A stretch of 64,000 nucleotides of DNA from an uncultured Alphaproteobacteria bacterium. GTDB lineage: Bacteria; Pseudomonadota; Alphaproteobacteria; Rs-D84. Under the pieces are notes generated by a model, which saw nothing but the letters and a program-made list of their open reading frames with translations, was not told the DNA's origin and did no database searches. The translations under genes were made by a program, and so were the position numbers. Shown here piece by piece: positions 1 to 42,133 of this stretch. Location of the stretch: positions 2,413 to 66,412 of the forward strand of contig CALXLG010000004.1 in NCBI GenBank assembly GCA_944389135.1, given 5' to 3'. Every line of letters begins with the position of its first letter. The first letter of the stretch is position 1.

Positions 1-501
1 GCTGATAAAATATACGATTTTATAAGTGCGGCACAATGCAATGAAAACATAACTGCAAACGAGGCTGTATCGGCACCATTATTAGAACGTTATAAAATGT
101 TAATGAGTTCTGCAAATGCTTGTTGCACAGACGGTATGGCATATTCATTAAAGCAAGCAGGTGCCACTGACGGTCTGATATATAAATTCTTGGCAGATGA
201 CGCCAACTTTTATGGGCTTGGCGCGCGTTGCTTAATGATGACAGACCAAGACTTAGATAAAAAATACCCAAATACAGCAACCGCGGCAGTCGTAGCAGAC
301 GTAAGAAACGGTTGCCTATGTCGTGGCCGTCAATGGTTTGAAGCAATGCTGGCACCATTTAAAGACGTATATAAAGCCATGCCAGAATTCAAAGATTATA
401 AGTTCTATTATACTTATACAGACGGCCTGCAGCGTGAAATAACAGTATCTGTAAATAACGATGTGCAGAACGTGTTAAATCAGCTGGCATTGTGCCCATA
501 A
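1..501 (+). CDS. Cys-rich hypothetical protein (5' end lies outside the window)
   Basis: Frame 1 is open from nt 1 with no stop until TAA at 499-501. The product is Cys-rich and a terminator hairpin follows. Confidence 0.45.
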   Translation, partial: ADKIYDFISAAQCNENITANEAVSAPLLERYKMLMSSANACCTDGMAYSLKQAGATDGLIYKFLADDANFYGLGARCLMMTDQDLDKKYPNTATAAVVADVRNGCLCRGRQWFEAMLAPFKDVYKAMPEFKDYKFYYTYTDGLQREITVSVNNDVQNVLNQLALCP

Positions 502-520
502 AAATATACCTATAAAAAAA

Positions 521-545
521 GCTCCGCATGTGCGGAGTTTTTTTA
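521..545 (+). terminator. rho-independent terminator
   Basis: Stem ctccgca/tgcggag followed by a T-run. Confidence 0.6.
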
Positions 546-570
546 TAACAATAAAACACCACAAAAATAA

Positions 571-600
571 AAAAGCCATTATTTACAATGGCTTTTTTAT
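571..600. terminator. bidirectional rho-independent terminator
   Basis: Hairpin agccatt-loop-aatggct with A-run and T-run flanks, sitting between convergent genes. Confidence 0.55.
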
Positions 601-1374
601 TTAATATCTCATCTGATTATATCCATAAGAAGTATTCTGTCTTTGCAAGTTTTCTAAATTACGCGTAACCACAACACGCATATAATCAATACAACGATTT
701 AAATCTTGACGATTTGAGCCTGCTTCCGTACATTCATTATATGCAGTATTGAATGCATCACTAACTTTAACTTTACTGTCTTTTAAATCTACATTTTTTT
801 CTAAATTATCATATAAACGCATAGTTTCCAAATCTGTTTGAATCTGCTGTTTTGCGGCACCAATGTCAGAATTGTTAATTGCTGATAAAGTTCTATCCAG
901 ATTACGTGATAAACAATTCATAACATCAGAAGTATAACCTGTGCGGCAATTTTCAGCCCCAGAAACACCGTTTTCAGCAATTCCGGCTATTCCGCCAGAA
1001 GAAGAACCGGATGATGCACCTGCTGCTTCAAGATTCGTTGTTAAAACAGCTTTCTGCAATTGCGTCTTTAAACGTTTAATAGTGGCTTCTAAGAAATCGT
1101 ACTGCTTTTCCATTTGTTGCGTTATGATTGTGGTCTTTAAAGCAACAACGTCACGTATTAATTGTTTATCTGCCTCGCTACTGGGATTAGTCGTTTTTCC
1201 TATGTTATATACATGAGTGCTACAAAGTGCCAACTCAGGATTAATTCTATCGTTTCTGCTAAGATCAGAACAACCATTATCGTCAGCATAAACAGGTAAC
1301 GCAACCACGAAAAGGCTAAGTCCCAAAAAGGTACAATTTCTTAAAACTTTAAAAATTTTCTTTTCTTTATTCAT
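601..1374 (-). CDS. secreted hypothetical protein
   Basis: N-terminal signal peptide (hydrophobic stretch ending VYADD). Contains a Gly/Ser-rich segment, coiled-coil-like regions and a few Cys residues. Confidence 0.55.
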   Translation of the reverse strand: MNKEKKIFKVLRNCTFLGLSLFVVALPVYADDNGCSDLSRNDRINPELALCSTHVYNIGKTTNPSSEADKQLIRDVVALKTTIITQQMEKQYDFLEATIKRLKTQLQKAVLTTNLEAAGASSGSSSGGIAGIAENGVSGAENCRTGYTSDVMNCLSRNLDRTLSAINNSDIGAAKQQIQTDLETMRLYDNLEKNVDLKDSKVKVSDAFNTAYNECTEAGSNRQDLNRCIDYMRVVVTRNLENLQRQNTSYGYNQMRY

Positions 1375-1384
1375 TTCTTTTTTA

Positions 1385-3334
1385 TTAGAGCATAATTAGA
1401 TAAGGTGCGCTTCTCAAACAGTCTAACTTTTTAGTCGTATCCGTAATAGCATCACAACTACACTCTACCTTGATTATGGATTTTTTTACTTCTCCACCTG
1501 CTGCTTGGCATTCTGAATCAAATGTTTCCAGCCGTTTGTATTTCTCTTTATCATATGCTTCTTCCAACTTTTTATCCGCGCGGCTTTTTCCTGTACTATC
1601 CAAGCAAGCACCACGGTCTATATCAAACACTGTATAAACATCACCACTGCATACACACGTTTTTTCCTTATCATCCCAGCGCATATAATTTTTATCTACC
1701 CCATTATTGCAAACGCATTTATCATATTCATAATTTGCGTTACTTAATGAACCACATTTCATCACTACACCATCTGCTGCAGATGAATCAGATACCAGCA
1801 ATCCATCGCTGTTAACTAATGCTTCCAACCTAGAATCAGGAACACAAACAGATGACGGTAATGTTTTTAACGAAACACTTTTCTGCAAATCTTGATATGT
1901 TGTTGCATTAACCGCACAATATTTTACAGGATTAATTGTTGTTTTTGTACCAAATGCAGAACTGCTAAATGTCGCAGGCGCATCTTGTTCAATCATTCGT
2001 TGCAAGGTTTCTATATCAATAGAAGTATCTCTCTTAAGATTACGGAACAATGCCGAATTATCCAATGCATCAGACATACAACCAATACGAATTGTGACGC
2101 CTTCCTTACTTCCATCTGGTGGATATAACCAGTTTGCATAAATTTCATCTTTTGAAGACAAGGTTTTAATCGGCTGACAGCCGCCGTCAGACATTGGAAC
2201 AATTCCACCTGGCGTACACTGCGCATTACCATATACAGTGCCTTCTGCTGTCGTAATTGCTACAGAACGCCCGTTTACACAATTTAGAGTATTATAAGTC
2301 ATCACTTGCCCGGGTCCACACAAATACTGCCCCCAGACATTACATGAATCATTTAACATTAAATAAATATCTGTAATATCAACACCAACAGTTTGTGCCA
2401 ACATCAAGGCATCATATATATCATTTAACACAGCATTATATGGGTCAAAGAACTCCATTGCCTTTTGTTTAAAGGTCTTAACACGCTTTGGCCCTGTGCA
2501 GTTATTACCAGAAGAATCGCATCCTGCATAATCATAAAGAGTATTTAGAACTGTTTTTAGTTTTTTTAATGAAACCTCTGCATTTTCTATTTCTGTTAAA
2601 ATTTCCCCTGAAATCTGCTGACGCGCCAAAACGTCTGCAGAAACACCAGCAGATGCTGCAACTGTCTGCGCCTGTGTCAAAGCCCCAGAATTTGCTGTTG
2701 TTGTAGCAGCACTGGTCGTTGCAGCCGATGCGCTTTGTTGTGCGCTATTGGCCTGTGCAATCGCCTGCGCGGTTAATTGTTTCTGTTCTTCTAATGCAGC
2801 CTGCAATTGAGCCGTCGTTTCCGCATTCTGCTGTTGCATCTGCGCCTGCATTTGTTGCATCTGGCTTTGCATTTGCTGTAATTGTTGTGCACTTTGTGCC
2901 GCTGCGGCTTGCGCTGCCGCAACCTGTGCGTCTGCCGCCTGTTGATTTGATTTTGCAGTAGAACTTGCCACAATTTGTGCAGAAATATATTCTATTAAAT
3001 CATCACCATATTGTTTACAAGAAGCATTGCTTTCAACGCACCCTGCAACAATTGGCCTTGCCACATCCATGGTCGTACAGCCACCAGAAGAACACTTTGG
3101 TTGCGCACACCTTAATATCAAAGAATTACAATTACCAAAATCTGCAACTGGTGCACTACTGCCTGCACTGGTTCTGTTGTTCATTAATGTATTCCAATTC
3201 GCATTATTAACAGCACCAGAAGTTTGATTATAAGCCGTTAAATTACTGCCAGCCGTCGTAGATACAGGCGTTCCAAACGCATCTACTGAAACTAAAGCCA
3301 ACGCAAAAACTAAAAATCTGGATATACTTTTCAT
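1385..3334 (-). CDS. secreted Gln/Ala-rich, Cys-rich repeat protein
   Basis: Start placed at MKSISRF (ATG preceded by aagagag). Has a signal peptide, a long Q/A low-complexity tract, and a Cys6 module with spacing C-x6-C-x4-C-x4-C-x12-C-x6-C. Confidence 0.55.
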   Translation of the reverse strand: MKSISRFLVFALALVSVDAFGTPVSTTAGSNLTAYNQTSGAVNNANWNTLMNNRTSAGSSAPVADFGNCNSLILRCAQPKCSSGGCTTMDVARPIVAGCVESNASCKQYGDDLIEYISAQIVASSTAKSNQQAADAQVAAAQAAAAQSAQQLQQMQSQMQQMQAQMQQQNAETTAQLQAALEEQKQLTAQAIAQANSAQQSASAATTSAATTTANSGALTQAQTVAASAGVSADVLARQQISGEILTEIENAEVSLKKLKTVLNTLYDYAGCDSSGNNCTGPKRVKTFKQKAMEFFDPYNAVLNDIYDALMLAQTVGVDITDIYLMLNDSCNVWGQYLCGPGQVMTYNTLNCVNGRSVAITTAEGTVYGNAQCTPGGIVPMSDGGCQPIKTLSSKDEIYANWLYPPDGSKEGVTIRIGCMSDALDNSALFRNLKRDTSIDIETLQRMIEQDAPATFSSSAFGTKTTINPVKYCAVNATTYQDLQKSVSLKTLPSSVCVPDSRLEALVNSDGLLVSDSSAADGVVMKCGSLSNANYEYDKCVCNNGVDKNYMRWDDKEKTCVCSGDVYTVFDIDRGACLDSTGKSRADKKLEEAYDKEKYKRLETFDSECQAAGGEVKKSIIKVECSCDAITDTTKKLDCLRSAPYLIML

Positions 3335-3422
3335 ATTCTCTCTTAAGTTTGATTTTAACATAAAAAAAATGTTATGAAAAGACAAAAAAGCACAACCCTA
3401 TAAAAAAACACCAACAAATATA

Positions 3423-5264
3423 TTGACAAATATTTATTTTGTGATAAATATTATACCAATGGTTATACAAGATGGAAAACTTTTATTTGTTGACGAAACA
3501 GACCTTGATTCACAGGGTGCCTTATACATCCCCGAAGGTGTAATTAGTCTAGACAAGAACGTAGGAAACGCAACATTAGGTCTGCGCGCAGTATATTTTC
3601 CAAACAGCCTTAAAAAAATTGATACGCCTGTTTTTTGGGATAACCCTTATCTAGAAAAAATACATTTTGGCGATGAAACCGCAGAAATAAAAGTTGACGC
3701 TTTTTGGTGTTGCCCTAAAATCAAACATCTTCGCATCCCAGAAAAATGGGAAAATCTTGGATTTTTTTTCGAACTTAATTGTTCAAATCTAAATACCGTA
3801 ATTAGACACACCAAGTCTGGCGAAGAAGTCTATAAAATAAAAACACTTGATGGCAAACAATATTATGAAAAAGCCAACAAAACTATATTTGGATACCAGG
3901 TATTAACCTTACACCCTTTACGTTTTCATAACAGCGGCACTAATGATTATTTTGCAATTTGCACAAATAAAAACCATTTTATTTCAAAATCTCTAAGCAA
4001 CACCATACAACAAGCAAAAACATATAAAATAGAGCAAGCTTTTTCTGCCGCTTTACGTATATATGAATGCAAACACCCAGAAGCTGGCGATATATACGAA
4101 ATAAAAAAATTAATATTGATGGCTTTGCACAGAACCTTGATTCATATATCTCGGATAAACTATAAGCAAAAACGTATGTTGGCACAATATTGCAAAAACA
4201 TACCGCTATACGTAACACAGCTTCAAGAAATTTTAAGCAAATATCCACGTGCAAGGAATGATTTTTACGAATTACAAGAAATATCATTAGAAGACTTGGC
4301 AGATATAATCACGCCTCGTACAGTTGATGACATAAAAAATAAAAAATGCACCAAAAAGCTAAAGAACAAACCTGTTTCGCAAGATGAAATGACCAGAATG
4401 GTACAAGAAGGCTATAAAAACCCAGGTGCGTTTCCTTATGCATGGATAAAGCAAATCGCACCGTATCGTCGTGGGGCAGCAACGGAAAAACTACATAACG
4501 CTATTCGTAAAGCTGCAATCAAGATGTATAGCCCAGATAATTATTCTGTTGCAGGGTTAGAAAAACCGATTAGCAAACTACAAAAAGAACTAAGCAAGAT
4601 AACTCATCAACCCGTCAAAGTAGAGTTTTTATCTGCTGGTAACTTTGGAAAAACCTTTACAATTCAAATTGCAGACAGCAAAAAAGACGTTCTAAAGATA
4701 TACCACAGTAATCGTTCTTATAATTATGTACACAATTGGGGTCACGATACCGAATTACAAAACTCGTTTTTATTATCTGGAAAAAAATATAAAGGCAATA
4801 TAAAATTTAGAAAAATATCTACTGCAGGTATCAGCAACCAACGTGGTGAAAGATATTTGGTATATCCTTTTATTGATGCCCCAGAATCAGAAACCACATT
4901 TGATAAAAACACATGTTTTAAACGTATTTCATTATACGATTTTAATTCATCTGAAAATTTATTAGGCAACACAATAATAGATGCCGGTGCAATACAAATA
5001 AATAAAGATATATGGAACCTTGATAAAAATACGACAAAAATATTAAGAACCGTACTATATCAATCGTGGGATGATTTAGGTTTTGTTTTAAACAACTATA
5101 CAAACGAAGAAATAAAAACAGTAACCGATTTAATAATAAACAAATTAAAAGAAAGAATGCCAGGGAATCCAAAAACCGACAAGCAGGCTTTTAGAAATTA
5201 TAAGCAACTTAAAGCCAAGGCAGATTTTCTAAGGAATAAATTATACTCACGTGGATGCAGATAA
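3423..5264 (+). CDS. hypothetical protein with BspA-type leucine-rich-repeat-like N-terminus
   Basis: The N-terminus has repeated IPEGVxSL / IPEKWENL segments of about 23 aa, resembling BspA-type LRRs. The rest has no recognisable motif. Confidence 0.5.
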   Translation: MTNIYFVINIIPMVIQDGKLLFVDETDLDSQGALYIPEGVISLDKNVGNATLGLRAVYFPNSLKKIDTPVFWDNPYLEKIHFGDETAEIKVDAFWCCPKIKHLRIPEKWENLGFFFELNCSNLNTVIRHTKSGEEVYKIKTLDGKQYYEKANKTIFGYQVLTLHPLRFHNSGTNDYFAICTNKNHFISKSLSNTIQQAKTYKIEQAFSAALRIYECKHPEAGDIYEIKKLILMALHRTLIHISRINYKQKRMLAQYCKNIPLYVTQLQEILSKYPRARNDFYELQEISLEDLADIITPRTVDDIKNKKCTKKLKNKPVSQDEMTRMVQEGYKNPGAFPYAWIKQIAPYRRGAATEKLHNAIRKAAIKMYSPDNYSVAGLEKPISKLQKELSKITHQPVKVEFLSAGNFGKTFTIQIADSKKDVLKIYHSNRSYNYVHNWGHDTELQNSFLLSGKKYKGNIKFRKISTAGISNQRGERYLVYPFIDAPESETTFDKNTCFKRISLYDFNSSENLLGNTIIDAGAIQINKDIWNLDKNTTKILRTVLYQSWDDLGFVLNNYTNEEIKTVTDLIINKLKERMPGNPKTDKQAFRNYKQLKAKADFLRNKLYSRGCR

Positions 5265-5283
5265 TAAAAATAAGTAAGACAAA

Positions 5284-5310
5284 ATAAAACGCCCAAACGG
5301 GCGTTTTATT
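5284..5310. terminator. bidirectional terminator
   Basis: Hairpin acgccc-aaac-gggcgt with T-run flanks. Confidence 0.6.
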
Positions 5311-8300
5311 TTATTCCATGCTGGTGGTAATAACATCACCATATACACCGAACTGTTCAGAACCGATATAACACTGCAGATGCTTACCAACTTCGTTCAT
5401 CCATTCGTCAATGGCTTCACGTTCTGCTTTATCCAACTGAGCATCCTGTACACTTTTTGTTATGTAATAGGTCAACAACCCACCACCAACACCGCCAACG
5501 ACAGAGCTAACACCTGTTGCGATTGCACGTCTTTTTGTTTCATTTTTATCCACAGTAGTCGTGGCTGTAGAATAAGCTTCATCTCTACATGCATCTGCTA
5601 ATTTATCTAATTCGGTCTTTGCTTTCGTCCTAGCTTTTGTCAGTTGATCATCTGTAACAGAACTACTATTGCTCCTTTTTTGGTCTTCAAGAGTTTTTAA
5701 AGCTGTCATTGCGTCATTGACCGTATTAATAATTGTATAAGAAACATTCAGCTCCTCTGCAACTTTGATAGCATTATCTGAATATTGCTTAGCTGTTGCA
5801 TAATTGCTATCTATATTATTTCTTGCGCTACTAGCAAGACCCGCACAATTTCCTGCACGCGCACCTAATTGTCCACTTGCAGTGTTAGCTTTTTTATTTG
5901 ATTGTAAACCGGTTAATCCACCAAAGATGTCACCTGTTGCAACAGCGTCACCAAAGAAACCGCCACCAACGCCACCACCCAGTACACCCAGTGCGGTCAT
6001 CCAACCTGCAATCTTTGGCTGCGCCTCTTTTGCGTCCTCACGGGCAGCACTGCCAACATTTGCAGAGATTTCTTCCAATACACTGGATGGTATCCAGCTG
6101 CCACATGTAAATGTATCGCCCGCTGCATAATACGCTGTTGCCCAATCGGCACCCGAACGTATCGCATCTTGGATATATTTGTCGTCTGACTGAATGTTTA
6201 TACGGATACGGCAGAACGAACCATACAAATCATTACTTGCAACGAAATCATTTGCCTGCAACCCAGATACAGTATAATTAGACGGTACCTTGTTGTTTTT
6301 CAACTTTACCCACAAGAATGTACTGCCCATATCTTTATTACCCATGATACCACCAGAATTGCTGGACATACACATATTCTGTTGTTTTGTAAGCTTTGCG
6401 TTATATTTCGCTTGTGCTTCCATTTCCAAATCTGCAATCAAATCTGTAAATATTTGCGCTTGGGCTTTGCTCTCTGCCAACTGGTCTTTTGTTACCATTT
6501 TTGCAAACATATACATACCACTTGCGTCATCACAACGCCCAGATGCACCAGAACCGTTTTGTGTTGTACACAACAAATTCCCATCTACGTCTTGGTCTTG
6601 AACCATTGTCGCAGTTGTAGATACGTTATATGTACCAGCATCTAACCAACCTTGGCGAACACTGCCGGAACTGCCCCAAGAACTTGCCGAACTTGCATTA
6701 CCAGCCTGTGCACGAGCCATTTCAGCCTTGATATGTTCTGCACAATTTGGATCGGCTTGGACTGTATTTATACACAAACCTAAAATAATTGTATGATCCA
6801 AAACACCACCGACCTTATTCATACTGGCATTAAACGCATCATCGTTCGTATTGGTCAATGATGAATATATGTCTGTACGGTTACGATAACAATTCTGATA
6901 ATCTGTACCACACTGCACTTTAACACAGTTTGTCGCAGTTAATTTGCAATTTTGTTCCATCTGGTCTAATGCACTTTGACTATAAGAAGACGCCAATCTT
7001 GCATTCAAAGATGCAACAACACCAACTGGGTCACCACCGTTATCTGCAGATGTAAACAAACGATCAAACAAGCTGTTGCCATTATTAAATATGTTGATTG
7101 TTATCGCACTACCTTCGGTTGCGTCTAATTTTGCACCAGCATATTGACATGCAATATCATTATTAACAACAGCTTCGCACTCTGATTTTATTGTTTCCAA
7201 AGTACTTGGGTTCGTAACACCTTTTACTGTATTTGAATTGTTAAAAGCAGATGCATAACACGCAGCCCCGCTACCTTCGCCACATGCCAACATTGCACAT
7301 GAAGAAATAGTTTCAGAACAACGCTTCTTCGCTTCTTCATCAAACTGTACAATCAAATCGTCAATCTTTACGCTTAATGATGCATTCATACGTTTTTCAT
7401 ATGCTTCAGAAAACATTTCTGTATGATTATCAGGATCTTGCAACTGAGATGCACTTGGCATAGCACCATTTCCAATTAACGTCGCATAACAGTACTGATT
7501 TGTACCAATAGTATCCATACACTCGTTGCTTAAAAAGTCTTTTACAGAACTTTTTGTTGTTGTCGTCGCACCGCCATTATCAGATGCGCTTTTTTCCTGC
7601 ATTTTATCTGCGGCATCTGCCAATGCAGTTGCGCTTCCTTCTTTACATCTATATGGATTGCTGGCACATGCGTTTAAGAAACATTGGTCAATAACTTTAT
7701 AACATGTAGAAACCGCGTTAACTGCCGCCAATGCCCTACCTTCAGAAATTAAAATACCAACACGACTGTCTGCCGTTGGGTTTGCAGACGTGTTTGTTGT
7801 ACCAAACAATTCTTTGATACCATCACTTTGGCAACGCGCCAAGGTTGATTCACAGAATAATTTTTGCTTCTTGAATTCGGTATCGCTTGTACACAATTCA
7901 AAATCAGAACCACAAACGTCTGATTTCTGCAAACAACTTGTATATTTCTTTACACAGTCGCTTGTATCATAACGATTGCTTATTTCAGCCGCAGAAATTA
8001 ACTGTCCCAAGACACTGCCTGCCGTTGGGTAAGTATATTCACCACTTGAATTCTTTGTTGCCAATGCGGTTTGACTGCTTGTACCAAACAAAGAGTTTAT
8101 ACCAGAAGCATTACACATTGCCAACGTACCAGAACATACCGCCTTTCTAGAAAAGAACAGCGTGTTATTTGTACATTCTTCAAAATTACTGCCACAAGCA
8201 TCGCTTCCTTTCAAGCATTCTGTGTATGCATCAATACACTCGGAGTTTTCTAATAAACTTGACGTGGTCGCCGTCGTTCCTGTTGAACTAGAAACATATG

Positions 8301-8433
8301 CGGTCATCGTCGGCATACGAGATATAGCAGTACCAACAACACTTGGACGCGCAGTCAAGGCATACGCCACAGGAACAATGCTAAAAACCGCCATAAAACC
8401 AATTGTTTTTTTAAGAAGATTCATTAGACTCAC
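5311..8433 (-). CDS. large secreted Cys-rich surface protein (1040 aa)
   Basis: Signal peptide present. Two tandem Cys6 modules (aa ~66-107 and ~160-201) with identical spacing. Gly-zipper-like segments near the C-terminus. Confidence 0.55.
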   Translation of the reverse strand: MSLMNLLKKTIGFMAVFSIVPVAYALTARPSVVGTAISRMPTMTAYVSSSTGTTATTSSLLENSECIDAYTECLKGSDACGSNFEECTNNTLFFSRKAVCSGTLAMCNASGINSLFGTSSQTALATKNSSGEYTYPTAGSVLGQLISAAEISNRYDTSDCVKKYTSCLQKSDVCGSDFELCTSDTEFKKQKLFCESTLARCQSDGIKELFGTTNTSANPTADSRVGILISEGRALAAVNAVSTCYKVIDQCFLNACASNPYRCKEGSATALADAADKMQEKSASDNGGATTTTKSSVKDFLSNECMDTIGTNQYCYATLIGNGAMPSASQLQDPDNHTEMFSEAYEKRMNASLSVKIDDLIVQFDEEAKKRCSETISSCAMLACGEGSGAACYASAFNNSNTVKGVTNPSTLETIKSECEAVVNNDIACQYAGAKLDATEGSAITINIFNNGNSLFDRLFTSADNGGDPVGVVASLNARLASSYSQSALDQMEQNCKLTATNCVKVQCGTDYQNCYRNRTDIYSSLTNTNDDAFNASMNKVGGVLDHTIILGLCINTVQADPNCAEHIKAEMARAQAGNASSASSWGSSGSVRQGWLDAGTYNVSTTATMVQDQDVDGNLLCTTQNGSGASGRCDDASGMYMFAKMVTKDQLAESKAQAQIFTDLIADLEMEAQAKYNAKLTKQQNMCMSSNSGGIMGNKDMGSTFLWVKLKNNKVPSNYTVSGLQANDFVASNDLYGSFCRIRINIQSDDKYIQDAIRSGADWATAYYAAGDTFTCGSWIPSSVLEEISANVGSAAREDAKEAQPKIAGWMTALGVLGGGVGGGFFGDAVATGDIFGGLTGLQSNKKANTASGQLGARAGNCAGLASSARNNIDSNYATAKQYSDNAIKVAEELNVSYTIINTVNDAMTALKTLEDQKRSNSSSVTDDQLTKARTKAKTELDKLADACRDEAYSTATTTVDKNETKRRAIATGVSSVVGGVGGGLLTYYITKSVQDAQLDKAEREAIDEWMNEVGKHLQCYIGSEQFGVYGDVITTSME

Positions 8434-8538
8434 TCCATACTTATTGTTTCAGTATAACATACTTTTATCATTTGATAAAGAAAAAATATTCAATATTTCA
8501 AAACTTTAAAAATAAAAAATAGGGTAAAACCCTATTTC

Positions 8539-9498
8539 CTACCCTATATCATCTAAGATACTTTTTAGCTCTTGCATATCATCAGGCATTCGTGCCTTAA
8601 AGTGCATCTCTTGTCCTGTAACGGGGTGCTTGAAATCTAAAATTTCCGCATGCAGCATCTGACCGTCATGTGTTTTTAAGAACTCTAACAATTCTTCATT
8701 TTTCACACTGCCTAATCTGCTGGCACCACGCCCATAAATCGGGTCGCACAAAACAGGAAAACCATGCGATGATAAATGAACCCTTATCTGATGTGTACGC
8801 CCTGTTAATAAATTGCACCTGAACAAAGAAACCCCTGCACGCGTCCAAGCATCCGACACAACAACCTCGGTATGTGCAGGTTTACCCCCAGACTTTACCA
8901 TTGTCATCTTCTGACGATTTCTTGAAGACCGGGCAATATTACCCGTAATATCAGCACTTTCCCAATTTGGCACCCCCCAAACAAACGCCAAGTACTTTCT
9001 GGTCAAGTCGTGTTCCGAAAATGTTTTGACCAATCCACGAAAAGCCGCATCAGACTTAGCAAACACCATAACACCACTGGTATCTTTGTCCAAGCGATGC
9101 ACAACCCCAGGTCTAACCGCCCCACCCAGCGCAGACAAATGGGTATAAGCCAAAATATTTTGAACTAGCGTTCCTGTTTTATTCCCTGCAGACGGGTACA
9201 TCACCACACCACGGGGCTTGTTAATCACGATAATATCATCATCTTCATATAAAATATCTAAATCAAAATCTGAAGATATATTTTCAGCTGCAACATCCGT
9301 TTCTCTTTCAGGCACAAAAACATCTATACAATCGCCAGGACGTAAACGCTGAGAAAATTTTACGTCATTTCCATTTAATAAAACACAAAACTTTTGAATC
9401 TCGCTGCGTGAAAAATCACCCATTTTACTTACTAAAAATTTATCTAAACGATTGCCAGACTCTTCTTCGGGCACAACAAACTGAATTTTCTTTTCCAT
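8539..9498 (-). CDS. rluD: 23S rRNA pseudouridine synthase, RluA/RluD family
   Basis: HRLDKDTSGVMVFAK catalytic motif and an S4-like N-terminus. Confidence 0.85.
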   Translation of the reverse strand: MEKKIQFVVPEEESGNRLDKFLVSKMGDFSRSEIQKFCVLLNGNDVKFSQRLRPGDCIDVFVPERETDVAAENISSDFDLDILYEDDDIIVINKPRGVVMYPSAGNKTGTLVQNILAYTHLSALGGAVRPGVVHRLDKDTSGVMVFAKSDAAFRGLVKTFSEHDLTRKYLAFVWGVPNWESADITGNIARSSRNRQKMTMVKSGGKPAHTEVVVSDAWTRAGVSLFRCNLLTGRTHQIRVHLSSHGFPVLCDPIYGRGASRLGSVKNEELLEFLKTHDGQMLHAEILDFKHPVTGQEMHFKARMPDDMQELKSILDDIG

Positions 9499-9505
9499 AT
9501 AAAAC

Positions 9506-10000
9506 CTACTTATATTCTTCCCAGTCCTTTCCTTTTTTGCAATCGGATAATTTTATTGTTAGTTCGCGCCCGTTTGCTTCTACTGGGCATGTTAACAATC
9601 CTGTACTAACGGCTTCGTCTGCATCCCTTGTTGCATTACGCCAAGTAAAATTTATTTCTTCTGGTGGATAAAGACATGCAATACGTAACTCGCCATCATG
9701 CTTATCATTTGGTCCCAACCATATACGAACACCTTCACCAAGTCCATAACAAGGAAAACCGTCCAAATAATACAAAACCAACCCTTTGCCTATCATATTA
9801 GAAGACAAAGAAGTGAATTTCCCACGATATTCATAATAAAGCATACCCGTAAGTCCTTGCCAATCTGTACTGGTAGAAAAAATACTTACACGTGGCAAAG
9901 GTTGCTGCTGAGGCGGAGTATCCGTATTTGTACCAGAATCTGCCGCAAAAGAATTAAAACCGAAAGAAATTAAAAATAATACAAGTAATATTTGTTTCAT
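9506..10000 (-). CDS. small secreted 4-Cys protein
   Basis: Start at MKQILL, preceded by an agggggg ribosome-binding site. Signal peptide ...NSFAADS. Overlaps the upstream gene, suggesting coupling. Confidence 0.5.
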   Translation of the reverse strand: MKQILLVLFLISFGFNSFAADSGTNTDTPPQQQPLPRVSIFSTSTDWQGLTGMLYYEYRGKFTSLSSNMIGKGLVLYYLDGFPCYGLGEGVRIWLGPNDKHDGELRIACLYPPEEINFTWRNATRDADEAVSTGLLTCPVEANGRELTIKLSDCKKGKDWEEYK

Positions 10001-10013
10001 TTCGTCCCCCCTA

Positions 10014-10526
10014 TCATTTTTCCAATTCAACAGCTATCTTCTTTACACCCTGAACAGGAACGGACAACACATGTAAAAAATTTGCATCTGCCCCAGAATC
10101 TAATAAAGTTGCAGGCGGTAAAAACTTCTGTCTATCCAGAATTTTATCGTTTTCATCATAAGATATAATTATTACCCCAGGAACACCGTATATTTGTTCT
10201 GACCTATTATGAACACTGCCACTTACCACAAAGTGAACGATGCCGTTATCATCTGTAATTGTTTCTATTTCGGAAATTTCTGCCACCAATGGATTTTCAC
10301 GAATTTCTTTTATCTGATGCTGTGCCATAACCGCAACTGCAAACACAACTGCAGACAACAAAGCACATATAGCAGCAATAAAAGTTAACCACACGTTTTT
10401 ACGTGGAGGCTTTTGAACAACCCACACATTTCCGCACACAGCGCACTTAACAGGCGCCTTTGGCACATTGTCCAAATTATATTCTGTTTTACAAAAATCA
10501 CATACTGTTTTCATACGACGATTCAT
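10014..10526 (-). CDS. zinc-ribbon (CxxC...CxxC) plus DUF3426-like single-pass membrane protein
   Basis: N-terminal CDFC...CAVC zinc ribbon, then one TM helix, then a C-terminal beta-rich domain. Confidence 0.5.
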   Translation of the reverse strand: MNRRMKTVCDFCKTEYNLDNVPKAPVKCAVCGNVWVVQKPPRKNVWLTFIAAICALLSAVVFAVAVMAQHQIKEIRENPLVAEISEIETITDDNGIVHFVVSGSVHNRSEQIYGVPGVIIISYDENDKILDRQKFLPPATLLDSGADANFLHVLSVPVQGVKKIAVELEK

Positions 10527-10534
10527 AGCATATT

Positions 10535-11851
10535 TTATTCCAATTTCAACATCCGATATTTTGCCCTGACTTTATTTTGTATTTCTTGCAACGCATTCAT
10601 ATAATCAGATACTGTCGCATTTTTATTAGACGATACCGCACCAAATATTTTACCGCTTTCTGTATCCGAAGCATTTTCCATATAAACAGCCAAAGACGCT
10701 AATCTGTTTAATTCTTCAAAAATAATATCTTGCATATTTGCAACACCAGACACAACATCCCAATAATATGCGGGGTTAACAGAATCTTGTATCAAGCTGC
10801 GCACAACTAAACGTGGTGTAATAGAACCAGTAAAACCAACAGTGACATACAAAGCATCGACGCTGCCAAAGGTCATATCTATATTTCTATTAACTTTCAG
10901 TATCGTAGGGTCATCTTCGTTATAAACAGAAAGACCACCCAATGTCATATTGTTAACCCACAAATCCCCCGTAGTAAAACTGCTAAATTTTGCAGTATCT
11001 GCCAAGCTAAGAGTTCCGTAAACCTCCATTGTTCTAGAATCCGATGTAAGTATTCCAGAGACTGTTGCACTTGCACTTTCAAATGGTTGATCCAGCGTTA
11101 TCCTGTTTTCAAATATAACATTGTCTGCGACTGCAACCCCCATTGTCAAAGTCTCGTCAAACTGCGCCGCCTGCGCATTGAAAAAAGCAGCATTATTTAT
11201 ATTATGCCCACCAAGATTTAAACCGGAAAGCATCGTTGCATCTGCAGAATCTTTTGACGGAACACGCCATAAATATAACGCGTTATCACGATTTACAGAT
11301 GTTGTTTCTACAATACCACCAGAAACATTTACACCTAAATCGACCGCGTCTGTATGCCATGCGCCAAAACTTCCATATGCACGATTACCTTCTATAAATC
11401 CCATTGAATCACCACCTAATGCAACGATTTCACGTGTCCGCATAGGCGTTATCTCTTCTGATGAAAAAACTATTACCCCTTGCAAAGTTGCCTTACCGTC
11501 TAAATCATTTGACTTCAAAATACGCAACTGATAATCATCTCCTGCACTTAAGACCAAATCAGGTGAAACACCATAATCTTGCAATTGTGCCATTTCTACA
11601 CGTGTAATATTTCTGCCGACAGTATTTAATAAAGTTTCTCTATTATCCAAAATATACCGTTCAAGCGCATCTTGGATGCTTTCCATCTGACGCGTTATCG
11701 CAATATTTTCTGCACGCATAGCCGCATTTTGTTGGTACTTAAAAATAAAAGGCATTATTATCGCGGCCAGCGCAATGCTCATCAACAATTCTATCAGCAT
11801 ACTTCCTTTCTGCGTACCATAAAAAATTTTACTTTTAAAACGCATTTTCAA
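10535..11851 (-). CDS. large prepilin-like (pseudopilin-like) protein, paralog 3
   Basis: Class III signal: basic leader, Gly, then SMLIE with Glu at +5 and a ~20 aa hydrophobic helix. 438 aa in total. Shares the LxGLNLGGxxINN motif with its two neighbours. Confidence 0.6.
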   Translation of the reverse strand: MKMRFKSKIFYGTQKGSMLIELLMSIALAAIIMPFIFKYQQNAAMRAENIAITRQMESIQDALERYILDNRETLLNTVGRNITRVEMAQLQDYGVSPDLVLSAGDDYQLRILKSNDLDGKATLQGVIVFSSEEITPMRTREIVALGGDSMGFIEGNRAYGSFGAWHTDAVDLGVNVSGGIVETTSVNRDNALYLWRVPSKDSADATMLSGLNLGGHNINNAAFFNAQAAQFDETLTMGVAVADNVIFENRITLDQPFESASATVSGILTSDSRTMEVYGTLSLADTAKFSSFTTGDLWVNNMTLGGLSVYNEDDPTILKVNRNIDMTFGSVDALYVTVGFTGSITPRLVVRSLIQDSVNPAYYWDVVSGVANMQDIIFEELNRLASLAVYMENASDTESGKIFGAVSSNKNATVSDYMNALQEIQNKVRAKYRMLKLE

Positions 11852-13046
11852 TTTCCTTTGGTTGCGCAGCCTGCCAGCCCTTTGACATTATGACAGAAAA
11901 TTCTTCATTTATCGGCGCAGCAGGAACAGACGCACGCGATAAATTTAATTCTGCAAACCGAGGCGGTGTCAAAGAAGGAAAAGACCAACTACCTAATCTT
12001 ATCGGCACAGTTGTAGACATCAATAATTCACCAGATACAGTTAACCCAAAGTTATCATAAAAAGTTATTTCTTCTGCAGATATATATGATGTAGTTAAAC
12101 TATGTGCAGTAACCCCCGTAAAACCACTAATTGTACGAATAGAATCTGATTTTAAGACTAAATTATTTGCGACGTTTACAGAGTTTAACACAGTTGCTCT
12201 ATCAGTTATTATGCGACCATTTGTTGTATACTTTTCACCGTTTAATTTGTCAGCATAAATATTACGAAAACCGGAAACATCATCAGAAATTCGCATCGAA
12301 CCAAATGTAGCCTGATCTGCATCTAAGTTAGCACCCGATGAAAAATAAATTACATTTGACAGTATGCTACCCGTTTCAATAAAAGAAGACGAAATATTTT
12401 GCACCTCGGCAGACTTTGCAACAACACCACCAACATCATATACTTTATTTTTCCCAAGATTTAAATCTCTTAACATAACATTTAAATCGTCTTCACCCAT
12501 TTTTGTACGATGCAAATATTTTGTTTTATCTTCACCATTTATATCACGCGATATTTTATAAATTAAATTACCTGGTTTAAAATCTGGTGCAGAAACCGCC
12601 CACAAATCACCATATGCAATTCCATCACTGCCAACAACAGCCGCATCTGAACCAATGTGCTTTGCCACCTGCGAAGTACGCAGTAAACTATTATCTAAAT
12701 CAAACGCTAGGTAAACATCAGTAATTGTTGCACCGTTTACAGCATATTTATCTATAAACCCAGCAACAGGAAACTCAGAAATATTATCCAGTTCTTCATC
12801 AGCTAACCTTATCTGTGCAATATCTGGCCAAGAAGCTTGATTTAATCTTATGAAGTTTAGTACAGAATCCCTTAGCTCTACTATTTTATTAGCAGTTGCC
12901 ATATCACGCAATTCATTATTAGTTTCAGATATCTGACTATATAAAATAGGCGTAGCCAAGGCAACAACCGCCATTGATAAAATGACCTCAAGAATACTAG
13001 AACCCTTAGATTCATCAGAAAAAATTCTATAATTACATACAGCCAC
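11835..13046 (-). CDS. large prepilin-like protein, paralog 2
   Basis: Leader ...SKG, then SSILE with Glu at +5 and a hydrophobic helix. 403 aa. Overlaps the downstream gene by 17 nt. Confidence 0.6.
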   Translation of the reverse strand: MAVCNYRIFSDESKGSSILEVILSMAVVALATPILYSQISETNNELRDMATANKIVELRDSVLNFIRLNQASWPDIAQIRLADEELDNISEFPVAGFIDKYAVNGATITDVYLAFDLDNSLLRTSQVAKHIGSDAAVVGSDGIAYGDLWAVSAPDFKPGNLIYKISRDINGEDKTKYLHRTKMGEDDLNVMLRDLNLGKNKVYDVGGVVAKSAEVQNISSSFIETGSILSNVIYFSSGANLDADQATFGSMRISDDVSGFRNIYADKLNGEKYTTNGRIITDRATVLNSVNVANNLVLKSDSIRTISGFTGVTAHSLTTSYISAEEITFYDNFGLTVSGELLMSTTVPIRLGSWSFPSLTPPRFAELNLSRASVPAAPINEEFSVIMSKGWQAAQPKEIENAF

Positions 13047-14409
13047 TTTTACCTTCCAACAAGCATCTTTTTATATCTATTCTTTTTTCTAGTCTTTGCC
13101 AAAATACATACTGACACAATATATATTGCGACAAAGATTTTTGATTGTAGCGCCCCTCTAATTCATTAACTATAGACCTGCAATCAACAGTCTTTGATTC
13201 ATCTGAGGCTGGGTCATCAATTATTTTAAAAACGCTATTATCAATAGAGTCTAACAAAGCATCAGGCAAAACAGAAGTCCCCGCAGGACGTATATCTAAA
13301 ACAACCGCCCCGGTTTCACCTTCGTTCAATGCACTTGATGTCTGATCACGCATTGTTATATTTGATGCAATCATAGTGTTTGTTTCTATACCACTACGCG
13401 TATTATATTCTAATTCATCTGGATCTATAAAAACATCCTGACCACGTGAAGCGTTAATATACGAATTCAATTCTAAACGTTCTACACTTAAATTAATATT
13501 ATCCGTAATAACATCACCTGCAACATACCAATCTGTCGGACCAGAAAAACTTGTTCTGCCCGCAGTCATTGCGAAATCATACACAGATGCGCTGTTTGAA
13601 GTAAAATTACCAGTATCCCCAAATTTAGAAATTGTTTTTGTATTTACATTACCAACACTTAATGTACCACGTGTAACAGACAAAGCCGCCTCACCCGAAT
13701 AACTTTGAAAAACGGCTTTTTCTGACGCCATAACTTCAATGCTATTTCTAACCTTTCTGCCATTTTCTTCACCGAATAAACTCAAAGTATTAAATTGCCC
13801 TGTTTCAAATTCGCCACGTCTTGCAAAAATCTCGCCTATATTGTTTATAGAAAAACCACCCATATCTAAATCTGTCAGAAAAGCACTGTTTTCTAAATTA
13901 GTTTCATTTCTTTTTACAACATCAGAATAAACATCATCCAGCGCAAGCCCAACAACTATATTTTTCCCGTCAACAGCTGCGTAAAAACCTATTCTGCGTG
14001 CTAGTTCAGCCAACTGTAATTCTGTTAAATCACCACCAGAAAGTTGCAGATACGCACTTACCTCGGTTGCAGACTTATTTATTACCAAAGAAATATTTTG
14101 TCCCAAGGCAGTACGTGGAACAAAACCAAGTGGCAAACCATAAGACTCCAATAAATCAGAAAAAGCGTTTCCAGATAAGACCGTTTGATTATATGGTAAA
14201 TTATTTGCCTGCTCGCGCACAAAAATTCGGGCCGCAGTTTGTGCAAGCTCTACCTTCCTAGTAGAAGAATACATCTGGGCATCCATATCTCTTACGGCAA
14301 GTCTTTGTGCAAAAAACGGAATAAAAGCAAATATCAGCGTAAACGCCAGCAAAGCTTGCAATAAAAAATTTCCACTCTGCTTTTGCAAAAAGGCACCTCC
14401 TACACGCAC
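13033..14409 (-). CDS. large prepilin-like protein, paralog 1 (Gln at +5)
   Basis: Leader ...KQSG, then NFLLQ followed by a 21 aa hydrophobic segment. 458 aa, with a C-terminal Cys cluster. Overlaps the next gene by 14 nt. Confidence 0.5.
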   Translation of the reverse strand: MRVGGAFLQKQSGNFLLQALLAFTLIFAFIPFFAQRLAVRDMDAQMYSSTRKVELAQTAARIFVREQANNLPYNQTVLSGNAFSDLLESYGLPLGFVPRTALGQNISLVINKSATEVSAYLQLSGGDLTELQLAELARRIGFYAAVDGKNIVVGLALDDVYSDVVKRNETNLENSAFLTDLDMGGFSINNIGEIFARRGEFETGQFNTLSLFGEENGRKVRNSIEVMASEKAVFQSYSGEAALSVTRGTLSVGNVNTKTISKFGDTGNFTSNSASVYDFAMTAGRTSFSGPTDWYVAGDVITDNINLSVERLELNSYINASRGQDVFIDPDELEYNTRSGIETNTMIASNITMRDQTSSALNEGETGAVVLDIRPAGTSVLPDALLDSIDNSVFKIIDDPASDESKTVDCRSIVNELEGRYNQKSLSQYILCQYVFWQRLEKRIDIKRCLLEGKSGCM

Positions 14410-18444: not shown

Positions 18445-19488
18445 ATGTTAAGCAAAATAAAATCTTTGTTGGCACCAGCAGCAACAAAAACAACTGCTGG
18501 ACAGTTGGCCGAAAAATTCGGCTTGGAATTACGTGGTAATCCAGAAACAGTAGTGTGCGGGGTTGCACCTATTGCAGATGCGAAACCTGGTCAGTTGGCG
18601 TTTTATTCTACGGAACAAAATAGCGCAGCGTTTAAAATTCTGCCGATTGAAGTATTAAAAAATACGCGTGCTAGTGTAATTCTGGTTCAACCAGAACAAG
18701 CAAAAAATGCGCCCAAAGGTGCGACTTTGCTGATAACAGAAACACCACGTGGCAATATTGTTAAGATACTTGGGGAAATTTATCGCGAGAAACCACGCTA
18801 TGGAATTAGTAAAAAAGCAACCGTTGAACGTGGTGTATTTTTTAGAAAGCGCAAAACGGTATACGTTGGTCAATATGCAACCATTGAACAGGGTGCAATT
18901 ATTGAAGAAGATGTAAAAATATATCCTGGGGCATTTATAGGCAGAAATGTGACAATTGGTAAAGGAACAATTATTCAAACTGGTGCACATATAGAAAATG
19001 CAACAATCGGCGCAGAATGTGTTATAAATGCTGGGGCGGTAATTGGTAAAGACGGCTTTGGATATACACGTCAAAATGGGCATAATGTTTTTATTCCACA
19101 TGTTGGTCGTGTAATAATTGGCAATCGCGTTTCTGTTGGTGCAAATACTTGCATTGACCGCGGTGCAATGACTGATACTCAGGTTGGTGACGGAACAAAA
19201 ATTGATAATTTATGTCAGATTGCTCATGGCGTTGTTATTGGTAAAGAATGCTTTTTGGCATCTGGCGTTGGCTTGGCAGGTGGCGTAGTTGTTGGCGACC
19301 GCGCTTTGCTGGCCGGTCAAGTTGGTATCGCAAATGGCGTAAAAATTGGCAATGATGCAGAAGTTGGTGCACATAGCGGTGTATTTAGAAGTGTGCCAGA
19401 CGGGCAAAAGCACATGGGATATCCTGCAGGTCCAGGAACAGAATTTATGCGCCATTATGCATGGGTAAAGAAACAATTAAAGGGTTAA
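18445..19488 (+). CDS. lpxD: UDP-3-O-acylglucosamine N-acyltransferase
   Basis: Left-handed beta-helix hexapeptide repeats; the N-terminus aligns with LpxD. Confidence 0.9.
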   Translation: MLSKIKSLLAPAATKTTAGQLAEKFGLELRGNPETVVCGVAPIADAKPGQLAFYSTEQNSAAFKILPIEVLKNTRASVILVQPEQAKNAPKGATLLITETPRGNIVKILGEIYREKPRYGISKKATVERGVFFRKRKTVYVGQYATIEQGAIIEEDVKIYPGAFIGRNVTIGKGTIIQTGAHIENATIGAECVINAGAVIGKDGFGYTRQNGHNVFIPHVGRVIIGNRVSVGANTCIDRGAMTDTQVGDGTKIDNLCQIAHGVVIGKECFLASGVGLAGGVVVGDRALLAGQVGIANGVKIGNDAEVGAHSGVFRSVPDGQKHMGYPAGPGTEFMRHYAWVKKQLKG

Positions 19489-19501
19489 ATAGGAGAAAGG
19501 T

Positions 19502-19939
19502 ATGATTGACGCAAAAGGTATTGAAAATGTAATTCCTCATCGTGGTGCAATGCGCTTGGTTGATGAAATTCGTGAATATAATGAAACCAGCGGGGTTGGC
19601 ATTAAATATGTTCGTGATGATGAATTTTGGTGTGCAGGGCACTTTCCTGGCCACCCCATTATGCCAGGGGTATTACAAATAGAGGCTTTGGCACAAACAG
19701 CATGCTTTATTGCTTTATCAAATATGGGAATAACAGGTGGTAAGACATTGGGATATTTTACCACAATGGAAAAAATAAAATTCTCGCACATGGTTATGCC
19801 AGGTGATGTTCTGGAACTGCACGTGGAATTGGTTATGTCAAAAATGAGATTATATAAATTTCACGGTATCGCAATGGTAAGCGGTAAAAAAGTGGCAGAA
19901 GCAACATTTACTGCTATTATTGACCCAACAAAAGAATAA
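19502..19939 (+). CDS. fabZ: 3-hydroxyacyl-ACP dehydratase
   Basis: HFPGHPIMPGVL hotdog motif. Confidence 0.9.
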   Translation: MIDAKGIENVIPHRGAMRLVDEIREYNETSGVGIKYVRDDEFWCAGHFPGHPIMPGVLQIEALAQTACFIALSNMGITGGKTLGYFTTMEKIKFSHMVMPGDVLELHVELVMSKMRLYKFHGIAMVSGKKVAEATFTAIIDPTKE

Positions 19940-19958
19940 AAACAAAAAACAATATTTA

Positions 19959-19986
19959 AAAATGCCCAAATGGGCATTTTTTATTT
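19959..19986. terminator. bidirectional terminator
   Basis: Hairpin aaatgccc-aaat-gggcattt. Confidence 0.6.
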
Positions 19987-40814: not shown

Positions 40815-40846
40815 AAAACCCGCAAATGCGGGTTTTGTTTTATTTA
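40815..40846. terminator. bidirectional terminator (second copy of the same hairpin)
   Basis: aaaaacccgcaaatgcgggttttgtttt. Confidence 0.6.
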
Positions 40847-41986: not shown

Positions 41987-42115
41987 CCCCGCCTTTGGTC
42001 GGGGAGCCGTCGGTTATAAAACAGGGCTTGCCCGAAAACTGGCGGGGTCATTTTACAAACTATGATTTTTTGAACTCCCCGACCGTCAAATTCCATTGGC
42101 GGTCTTATGTTTTTT
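41987..42115 (+). promoter_or_regulatory. candidate attenuator/riboswitch-like leader
   Basis: Terminator hairpin 42081-42104 plus U-run lies just before the ribosome-binding site. An alternative 8 bp pairing (41997-42004 ggtcgggg with 42077-42084 ccccgacc) and a local hairpin (41987-42003) give mutually exclusive structures. Confidence 0.35.
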
Positions 42116-42133
42116 AAGAAAGGAGTCGGTAAG

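Follow-up and report, generated by a model that had tools for sequence, protein, structure and literature searches.

Five genes were examined at one end of a 64-kb stretch of DNA (contig CALXLG010000004.1, assembly GCA_944389135.1) from an uncultured alphaproteobacterium of the order Rs-D84. The whole stretch is called the window below, and the block studied covers its positions 1–8433 (Table 1). Two genes of the block, A1040 and B666, encode exported, cysteine-rich proteins. They are single-copy core genes of an Rs-D84/"Candidatus Enterousia"-like lineage of gut Alphaproteobacteria, are restricted to that lineage, and match no known family. A1040 carries five cysteine modules of two types and a helical-bundle cassette that is replaced by recombination between close relatives. 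B666 appears to form one functional unit with its neighbor C257.

Enterousia is placed in the order Rs-D84. Most biosynthesis and the standard transporters are missing from its genomes of <1 Mb, and its lifestyle is presumed to depend on partner cells (PMC12306168). The guts of animals and humans widely harbor Rs-D84/"Enterousia" bacteria, which are presumed to live off other cells (PMC12306168). For function or a cultured representative, the literature searched yielded metagenomic descriptions only.

Locus and gene features

The window is chromosomal and encodes IF2, NusA, PNPase, MutS, DnaX, ParAB, and other housekeeping proteins. LptD/F/G, LpxD, and OmpH genes identify the host as a diderm. 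Both the A1040 and B666 open reading frames (ORFs) are present where the first-pass annotation, made from the window alone, had placed them. The likely true starts are the ATG at 8424 for A1040 and the ATG at 3334 (Met18) for B666, whose family consensus starts MKxISRFLL. Terminator-like hairpins were found upstream of A1040 (8519–8547), downstream of A1040 (Table 1), and after C257 (522–537), and a promoter-like site lies upstream of A1040 at 8451–8478. Flanked by hairpins, A1040 appears to be its own transcription unit. Judged from these signals, the transcription units are probably the upstream pilin-like block with rluD, A1040 alone, and B666 with C257.

Table 1. Coordinates of the genes and features in the window
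Feature	Positions	Strand	Description
D454	1–501	+	3′ end of gene for secreted 454-aa protein
C257	601–1374	-	257 aa, exported, helical
B666	1385–3385	-	666 aa, Cys-rich, exported
B666 variable C-terminal tail	1388–1825	-	aa 521–666; C-x(n)-CxC units
B666 central Cys-rich domain, conserved	1844–2521	-	aa 289–514; 10 invariant Cys
B666 Q/A/M-rich long helix	2525–3016	-	aa 124–287; Leu/Met 3-4-3-4 spacing
B666 Cys6 module	3017–3130	-	aa 86–123; C-x6-C-x4-C-x4-C-x12-C-x6-C; predicted helical hairpin
Leucine-rich repeat (LRR) gene	3423–5264	+	613 aa
Strong terminator-like hairpin	5279–5314	-	16-bp stem; between convergent A1040 and LRR genes
A1040	5311–8433	-	1040 aa, Cys-rich, exported
A1040 C-terminal tail, conserved	5314–5463	-	aa 991–1040; invariant Cys1021, terminal beta-hairpin
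A1040 glycine-zipper-like segment 2	5464–5526	-	aa 970–990; AIATGVSSVVGGVGGGLLT
A1040 hypervariable four-helix-bundle cassette	5539–5883	-	aa 851–965, between the Gly segments
A1040 glycine-zipper-like segment 1	5905–6012	-	aa 808–843; IAGWMTALGVLGGGVGGGFFG...; GxxxGxxxGxxxG
A1040 mixed alpha/beta domain, highly conserved	6019–6618	-	aa 606–805; strands and helices by DSSP, predicted local distance difference test (pLDDT) 64–89
A1040 type-II Cys6 module 3	6742–6948	-	aa 496–564; C-x6-C-x4-C-x6-C-x38-C-x9-C
A1040 type-II Cys6 module 2	7147–7320	-	aa 372–429; C-x6-C-x4-C-x7-C-x26-C-x9-C
A1040 type-II Cys6 module 1	7489–7704	-	aa 244–315; C-x6-C-x4-C-x6-C-x41-C-x9-C
A1040 type-I Cys6 copy 2	7831–7956	-	aa 160–201; C-x6-C-x6-C-x6-C-x12-C-x6-C; unit ~aa 146–223
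A1040 type-I Cys6 copy 1	8113–8238	-	aa 66–107; C-x6-C-x6-C-x6-C-x12-C-x6-C; unit ~aa 52–129
A1040 post-signal motif	8296–8355	-	aa 27–46; T-A-R-P-S-V..G-T-A..R-M-P-T-M-T
A1040 signal peptide	8359–8433	-	aa 1–25; ...VPVAYA/LT; Kyte-Doolittle hydrophobicity (KD) 1.8; cleavage site by eye
Upstream block	8539–14409	-	pilin-like p458, p403, and p438; p170; p174; RluD
p170, p174	10014–10526, 9506–10030	-	always between pilin-like genes and rluD
Three large pilin-like proteins (438, 403, 458 aa)	10535–14409	-	prepilin-like N-termini

Distribution and gene order

Relatives of A1040 are carried by at least 268 GTDB species representatives. The loci of the best 80 of these 268, all from different assemblies, were compared (loci are designated below by L numbers). 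All but two, which are otherwise labeled, come from metagenome-assembled genomes (MAGs) of gut-derived Alphaproteobacteria; many are Candidatus Enterousia, and one is a closed 958-kb chromosome (OZ007020.1). A1040 is single copy at each of the 80 loci. Of these loci, ~70 keep the order p458-p403-p438-p170-p174-rluD-A1040. B666 and C257 follow A1040 in 28, and the LRR gene stands between A1040 and B666 in 17.

The first-pass annotation had described the block as an island and had raised copy-number variation of a lineage-specific gene family. A genomic island is ruled out by the flat GC content (0.35–0.42), by the lack of a tRNA (from a tRNA scan) or mobile gene nearby, and by synteny across species. 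One copy per locus and the kept gene order contradict a variable locus. A plasmid origin was also rejected, as tblastn of A1040 and B666 against plasmids gave no match. Lineage specificity was borne out by the searches.

At least 781 homologs of A1040 were found; none has a Pfam match, and the few that are named are called hypothetical. For B666, at least 1359 homologs were found without a relevant Pfam domain, four carrying a low-complexity TFIIA match only. The A1040 family profile gave 266 matches at E ≤ 1e-3 among 1.84 billion representative proteins, and the 150 matches listed are all full-length relatives or fragments covering part of the profile. The most distant full-length relatives have 830–1140 aa and ~24% identity and come from MAGs named Rickettsiales or Alphaproteobacteria bacterium. 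At one such locus (L088, 8168–12793), the A1040-like gene lies directly after ftsQ and an ftsA-like gene, in the usual ftsZ slot.

Pfam and NCBIfam scans of all proteins, distant homologs, and one fusion protein returned nothing relevant, with low-complexity TFIIA and TolA matches only. Family profiles of A1040, B666, C257, and p438 searched against PDB sequences gave, apart from coiled-coil noise, only weak matches to XaxA/YaxA and PilA-N. A Foldseek search of AlphaFold2 (AF2) models against the PDB gave nothing at E < 0.28 (best B666 match, E 1.1). The claim that the proteins belong to no known family holds across these sequence and fold searches.

Cysteine modules of A1040

Sec-type signal peptides are found on A1040, B666, and C257, in agreement with their earlier description as secreted. 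The A1040 family has the signal consensus MSxLKKTIGFxAVxxVxPAAFA. A motif [ST][AGS]RP[SAT] follows in the first 120 aa of 143 of 186 full-length A1040 family members, the most distant ones included, and in 0 of 120 B666 homologs.

Cysteine makes up 3.7% of A1040 and 3.9% of B666; the median over 48 other window genes is 0.72%. In A1040, adjacent Cx6C pairs number 13, with 1.1 expected and a maximum of 6 in 5000 randomizations, and 30 of its 38 cysteines lie within the five modules. The first 30 cysteines are invariant in an alignment of 53 homologs, and the module cysteines are also invariant in the relatives of ~24% identity. In an alignment of 48 B666 homologs, 21 of the first 22 cysteines are invariant, and the remaining one is 98% conserved. 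In both proteins, the gaps between cysteines are identical between homologs at ~50–60% identity, so the spacing recurs and is not accidental. Hundreds of full-length homologs with identical spacing, purifying selection, and the randomization leave virtually no room for a chance cysteine pattern in spurious or decaying ORFs. Given the cysteine richness and invariant spacing, A1040 and B666 are almost certainly disulfide-bonded outside the cytoplasm.

The two tandem type-I copies of A1040, already reported as a duplication in the first-pass annotation, are clearly related. They share 22 of 42 core residues, 43% identity over 90 aa, and 52% nucleotide identity. A gap-free alignment over 77 aa scores 183, against 30 ± 5.7 for shuffled sequences, and family sub-alignments of the copies match in hhalign with 99.5% probability (E 9e-23). 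Distant A1040 relatives have one type-I module followed by three type-II modules. The tandem duplication is therefore an old, derived trait that has become fixed in the window's clade. On sequence grounds, the pair is an ancient duplication and not copy-number variation. The AF2 model of copy 1 has helices at 58–75 and 90–105 (pLDDT 75–82).

The spacing of type-II module 1 is kept in relatives of ~24% identity, and type-II module 3 weakly resembles the type-I modules in register (hhalign E ~1e-3). The ratio of nonsynonymous to synonymous substitution rates (omega) is 0.01–0.15 in the cysteine modules, mostly ≤0.1 (18 independent pairs). Such strong purifying selection is at odds with an exposed adhesin tip. 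The alpha/beta domain that follows has many invariant residues, an omega of 0.01–0.18, and no PDB or Pfam match.

Glycine-rich segments and variable cassette

Both glycine-rich segments named in the first-pass annotation are present. GxxxGxxxG occurs in the weakly hydrophobic stretches LGVLGGGVGGGFFG and VVGGVGGGLL, which have 5–7 Gly per 19-mer. Segment 1 averages ~6.6 Gly per 19-mer and a family mean KD of 1.16, and its AF2 confidence is low. Segment 2 has a KD of 1.43 in the window sequence and 1.48 as a family average. The window value is the highest found after the signal peptides of A1040, B666, C257, and D454, none of which has a strongly hydrophobic segment there. The hydrophobicity of the A1040 segments is too low for typical helices of the inner membrane. 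Across the family, Lys plus Arg (K+R) at segment 1 is higher upstream (3.3) than downstream (1.5). The positive-inside rule, applied to an N-out arrangement in the inner membrane, is not obeyed by the segments, and the analysis gave no clear topology.

The bundle between the segments is hypervariable. Column conservation is 0.27 at aa 841–960 and 0.6–0.86 elsewhere, and median identity over 3031 pairs is 0.62 in the core (aa 60–800) and 0.17 in the bundle, which is 49–244 aa long. Pairs with 0.97–0.99 core identity have a bundle identity of merely 0.34–0.36, and the breakpoints are sharp, at ~aa 850 and 965, exactly at the Gly-rich flanks. The converse mosaic is seen in L021 and L027, where the bundle is near-identical and the rest has a synonymous divergence (dS) of ~0.75. 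The bundle is thus a cassette replaced by recombination between close relatives. Its omega is 0.1–1.0 across the 18 pairs. No silent copies of the bundle were found within the 64-kb window. A weak profile match of aa 868–1011 to XaxA/YaxA (E 0.012–0.1) is probably driven by coiled-coil and Gly-rich composition.

B666 and C257

AF2 models place helices of B666 around its module at 83–98, 106–118, and from 121 onward, and within the long-helix region at 121–184, 188–221, and 250–287. This region is the Q/A/M-rich tract noted earlier as poly-Q/A, and Q168, M172, Q173, Q175, and M176 are invariant. Heptads read by eye are consistent with a coiled-coil stalk at aa 124–287. The C-terminal tail has a column conservation of 0.28–0.45, and across 23 species, B666 has 0–4 CxC units and 20–30 cysteines.

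C257 accompanies B666 in 27 of the 28 B666-bearing loci. In six species (L022, L023, L026, L061, L065, and L075), the two are fused in a single ORF that retains the central Cys-rich domain and is without the variable B666 tail and the C257 signal peptide. Because of these fusions and the co-occurrence, B666 and C257 are best regarded from sequence as one functional unit, in some species as one fused protein.

The first-pass annotation had assigned one Cys6 module to both A1040 and B666. Its spacing pattern does match both proteins, at both type-I copies of A1040 and at the B666 module (Table 1), and the cysteines are invariant; homology was not shown. Whole-profile hhalign of A1040 against B666 gave E 0.21, out of register; hhalign of the B666 module against each A1040 module gave E ≥ 0.02; and tblastn of the B666 module found no A1040 cysteine module, only a chance 14-residue match near aa 748 (E 8). 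A single gene family comprising both proteins was not upheld, given no detectable homology between them. From these comparisons, common ancestry of the modules is not demonstrable, with remote homology neither shown nor excluded. AF2 models predict a helix-loop-helix for the A1040 type-I and B666 modules alike. The outer gaps are 6 and 6 in both, so that C1+C6 = C2+C5, the arithmetic required of a twin-CxnC motif and consistent with nested disulfides. The likeness may be read as a common structural solution, a twin-Cx6C hairpin with a small disulfide-closed apex.

Neighboring genes

The ORF at 97–501, listed earlier as a Cys-rich secreted protein at 1–501, does contain cysteines and belongs to a secreted product; it is only the C-terminal part of D454, whose full gene is seen in L003 at 18998–20362. 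D454 has a Sec-type signal peptide, CC and CxC motifs, and no Pfam match. It is the most conserved of the set, with 59–91% identity across species (71–91% in all but one), and in some pairs its C-terminal domain is more conserved than DnaX. A few kilobases past D454, three related loci have ~5 kb without called protein genes (L089, 15273–20940; L090, 14470–19315; L001, 17886–22610); the equivalent position lies left of the window start. This stretch may be an rRNA operon.

The LRR-like protein reported earlier is present. It has no signal peptide. A BspA-type LRR forms its N-terminus (Pfam LRR_5, E 9e-9; PDB profile, E 7e-39, confined to the LRR part), and its C-terminal domain at ~aa 300–600 is conserved. 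Kinase-like motifs were read by eye in this domain (SGNFxKT...K.YH, D..N, IDxG), which has no Pfam or PDB match. Inserted variably between A1040 and B666, the gene is the fastest evolving of the block (34–42% identity). Its product could be an effector.

In the upstream block, RluD was confirmed by TIGR00005. Two of the pilin-like proteins, p438 (G/SMLIE) and p403 (G/SSILE), agree with the class III signal: Gly at −1, a hydrophobic helix, and Glu at +5. The third, p458 (G/NFLLQ), has Gln at +5. The pilin-like proteins weakly match NCBIfam ComGE/GspG (E ~0.05) and Geobacter PilA-N (E 0.004), and Pfam Shufflon_N was found on 1 of 120 homologs. No PilB, PilC, PilD, or secretin gene is present in the window, and type IV pili are not reported for the lineage. 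A Zn-ribbon and single transmembrane segment were seen in p170, with a faint DUF3426 match in a relative; p174 is a small secreted protein.

Elsewhere in the window, a lone VirD4/TraG-type coupling gene lies at 19981–22200 (-) amid rsmE, fabZ, and lpxD, with no other type IV secretion genes in the 64 kb. Such a scattered arrangement of type IV secretion genes resembles that of Rickettsiales. A Slam gene (Pfam SlipAM, E 2e-32) at 42107–44845 (+) is preceded by a 465-aa ORF without a Pfam match, which may encode a Slam-dependent surface lipoprotein. The gene at 40840–41487 (-) encodes an OmpA-family protein with a true glycine-zipper domain (Pfam Gly-zipper_Omp, E 1e-8), so this organism uses glycine-zipper envelope proteins.

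Interpretation

A1040 and B666 would be core envelope proteins of genome-reduced gut Alphaproteobacteria (order Rs-D84, "Candidatus Enterousia"-like). A1040 would be exported by its Sec signal peptide, and its first ~520 residues would fold as five disulfide-locked helical modules, followed by the alpha/beta domain. Purifying selection on this disulfide-rich scaffold points to a role within the envelope, either structural or in binding partners; the scaffold is most likely periplasmic or envelope-located, touching conserved partners. Beyond it, the two weakly hydrophobic glycine-zipper segments may hold the bundle in or at a membrane. Their weak hydrophobicity and the broken positive-inside rule would allow passage through Sec and would fit an outer-membrane or peripheral association. 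The swapped A1040 bundle and the variable B666 tail suggest exposure to a changing outside, and the bundle may be the exposed part, met by partner cells, host, phages, or immunity. The adhesin or host-interaction role suggested in the first-pass annotation may draw indirect support from these two variable parts only, neither of which it had named. B666-C257 would be a two-subunit protein whose head is locked by cysteines and whose coiled-coil stalk is rich in Gln/Met; a conserved Cys-rich domain and a variable tail of CxC repeats would complete it. We tentatively favor a disulfide-locked envelope or surface apparatus in which a conserved scaffold carries exposed variable parts. Its function is inferred, as are its exposure at the surface, its place in a membrane, and the pairing of its disulfides.

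Several points weigh against this reading. No homology ties A1040, B666, or C257 to the surface or to cell contact, and alpha-helical anchoring in the outer membrane is rare. The Pfam Gly-zipper models PF13488, PF13441, and PF05433 have no A1040 match at E ≤ 0.1. The AF2 models are of moderate confidence (A1040, pLDDT 70 and predicted TM-score [pTM] 0.42; B666, pLDDT 63 and pTM 0.28). Bundle omega reached 1 in one pair only, and the variability of the bundle could reflect relaxed constraint plus recombination and not diversifying selection. A terminator-like hairpin parts A1040 from the pilin-like block, and synteny with that block is missing at the distant relative L088.

The last two points also count against an unlikely alternative, in which A1040 is anchored in the inner membrane as the periplasmic scaffold of a type IV filament-like machine formed with the pilin-like proteins, the Gly segments are transmembrane, and the bundle is cytoplasmic and weakly constrained. 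This would explain the gene order shared with three pilin-like genes and draws on their pilin-like N-termini; no PilB, PilC, PilD, or secretin gene in the window completes such a machine. Lys and Arg are frequent next to the bundle in the window sequence (KK...R after segment 1 and KRR before segment 2), which favors this alternative, but the family-wide K+R difference at segment 1 is opposite to the positive-inside rule, and the mean hydrophobicity of both segments is low. Cysteine parity agrees with a crossing (35 cysteines before segment 1 and Cys1021 add up to 36 on one side, and the bundle has 2), and a bundle between two hydrophobic segments recalls chemoreceptor sensor domains. Cassette replacement and the wide length range would be unusual for a cytoplasmic domain. 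Still less probable is a channel or pore former whose glycine-zipper helices, together with a helical region like that of alpha pore-forming toxins, oligomerize in the bacterium's own outer membrane or in a partner's membrane and move metabolites. Glycine zippers are common in channel-forming proteins, and A1040 has GxxxGxxxGxxxG motifs. The XaxA/YaxA match to aa 868–1011 points the same way but is below significance, probably reflects composition, and is accompanied by no adjacent partner B-subunit gene. The pore reading also draws on the lack of standard transporters in the lineage, which is presumed to take up metabolites from other cells (PMC12306168); the ~780-aa conserved Cys-rich scaffold would be left unexplained.

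Far less credible than either is B666 as a divergent TraN of F-type conjugation, with the cluster as part of a type IV secretion system. B666 is superficially TraN-like in its size (~600–730 aa), signal peptide, and 22–31 cysteines. UniRef names one B666 homolog, P0237 from Ca. Enterousia avicola, "IncF plasmid conjugative transfer protein TraN", whereas NCBI calls the same protein hypothetical. The VirD4-type coupling gene, ~12 kb away, would suit such a system, but no other F-type tra gene (traU, traW, trbC, traF, traH, or traG) is present in the window, and the genes around B666 are housekeeping or uncharacterized ones. TraN was absent from Pfam and NCBIfam matches at E ≤ 0.1 and from PDB matches of the B666 family profile at E ≤ 10. 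The best PDB fold match of B666 lies at E 1.1, and tblastn against 72,556 plasmids gave nothing at E ≤ 1. With profile, fold, plasmid, and gene-context evidence all negative, the TraN identity was rejected and is effectively refuted at the level testable from sequence and models.

A more ambitious form of the favored envelope reading, which we consider unlikely in its full extent, joins A1040, B666-C257, and possibly the giant pilin-like proteins in an undescribed Rs-D84 envelope apparatus. A periplasm-spanning scaffold would end in outer-membrane zipper helices, and the displayed cassette would choose the partner or host for attachment or the metabolite source.

Large genes kept by such small genomes in every species, at fixed positions and with all cysteines conserved, are strong candidates for lifestyle machinery. 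They offer as targets two uncharacterized families with new Cys6 helical modules and a B666-C257 unit linked by fusion. The bounded variable cassette could serve as a strain marker or a probe of partner or host specificity. A misleading "TraN" label in a database is removed. Even if the functional inference is wrong, well-defined new domain families are available for annotation. Databases already list these proteins, as hypothetical. In the libraries and literature searched, their families, the fusion, the cassette, and both types of module appear to be undescribed.

Comparison with known systems

CHCH proteins and the small Tims are twin-CX9C or twin-CX3C helical hairpins of the mitochondrial intermembrane space, oxidized outside the cytosol. 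Like them, the A1040 type-I and B666 modules are modeled with Cys pairs on two antiparallel helices and would be oxidized outside the cytosol. They differ in having Cx6C in every module, not Cx9C or Cx3C, and a third disulfide-capable pair at the apex. Up to five modules occur per exported bacterial protein of ~1000 aa, and there is no sequence or fold match to CHCH proteins. TraN shares with B666 secretion, a length of ~600 aa, and >20 conserved cysteines, but B666 has a long coiled coil, a separate partner in C257, and no tra context.

Glycine-zipper families (Gly-zipper_Omp, Gly-zipper_YMGG, and Rick_17kDa_Anti; SlyB/Pcp lipoproteins) have GxxxGxxxG and low hydrophobicity in common with A1040. 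The A1040 segments, however, do not make up a single hairpin: ~130 aa separate them, with a helical bundle in between, and there is no lipobox. The four-helix-bundle sensors of chemoreceptors and histidine kinases (PcaY_PP, Tar, and NarX) also place a bundle between two hydrophobic segments. Their identity to A1040 is 6–14% and the fold is generic, whereas the A1040 bundle is hypervariable and follows a 780-aa exported scaffold. No HAMP, MA, or HisKA signaling module comes after the bundle; a 50-aa tail without a Pfam match ends the protein. For a XaxA/YaxA system (ClyA-type alpha pore-forming toxins), no B-component gene lies next to A1040, whose neighbors are rluD and the LRR gene. PilY1/PilC resembles A1040 in its ~1000-aa length, signal peptide, and place beside a pilin-like block. 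A1040 has no Pfam or NCBIfam match, is all-helical and Cys-rich rather than a beta-propeller, and is parted from the pilin-like block by rluD and a terminator-like hairpin.

In the variable surface antigens Msp2/P44 of Anaplasma and Vsp/OspC (helical bundles) of Borrelia, the central region is swapped and the flanks are conserved. A1040 likewise has a conserved framework and a sharply bounded hypervariable segment replaced by recombination, and OspC is among its weak helical-bundle matches in Foldseek. The architectures are unlike A1040, Msp2 being a beta-barrel and OspC a lipoprotein. No silent donor cassettes were found within the 64 kb, and for A1040, exchange is seen across strains or species, with none shown inside one genome. 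Overall, the conserved scaffold, the recombining variable segment that is putatively exposed, and the disulfide-stapled hairpins resemble known principles carried out by unrecognized domains.

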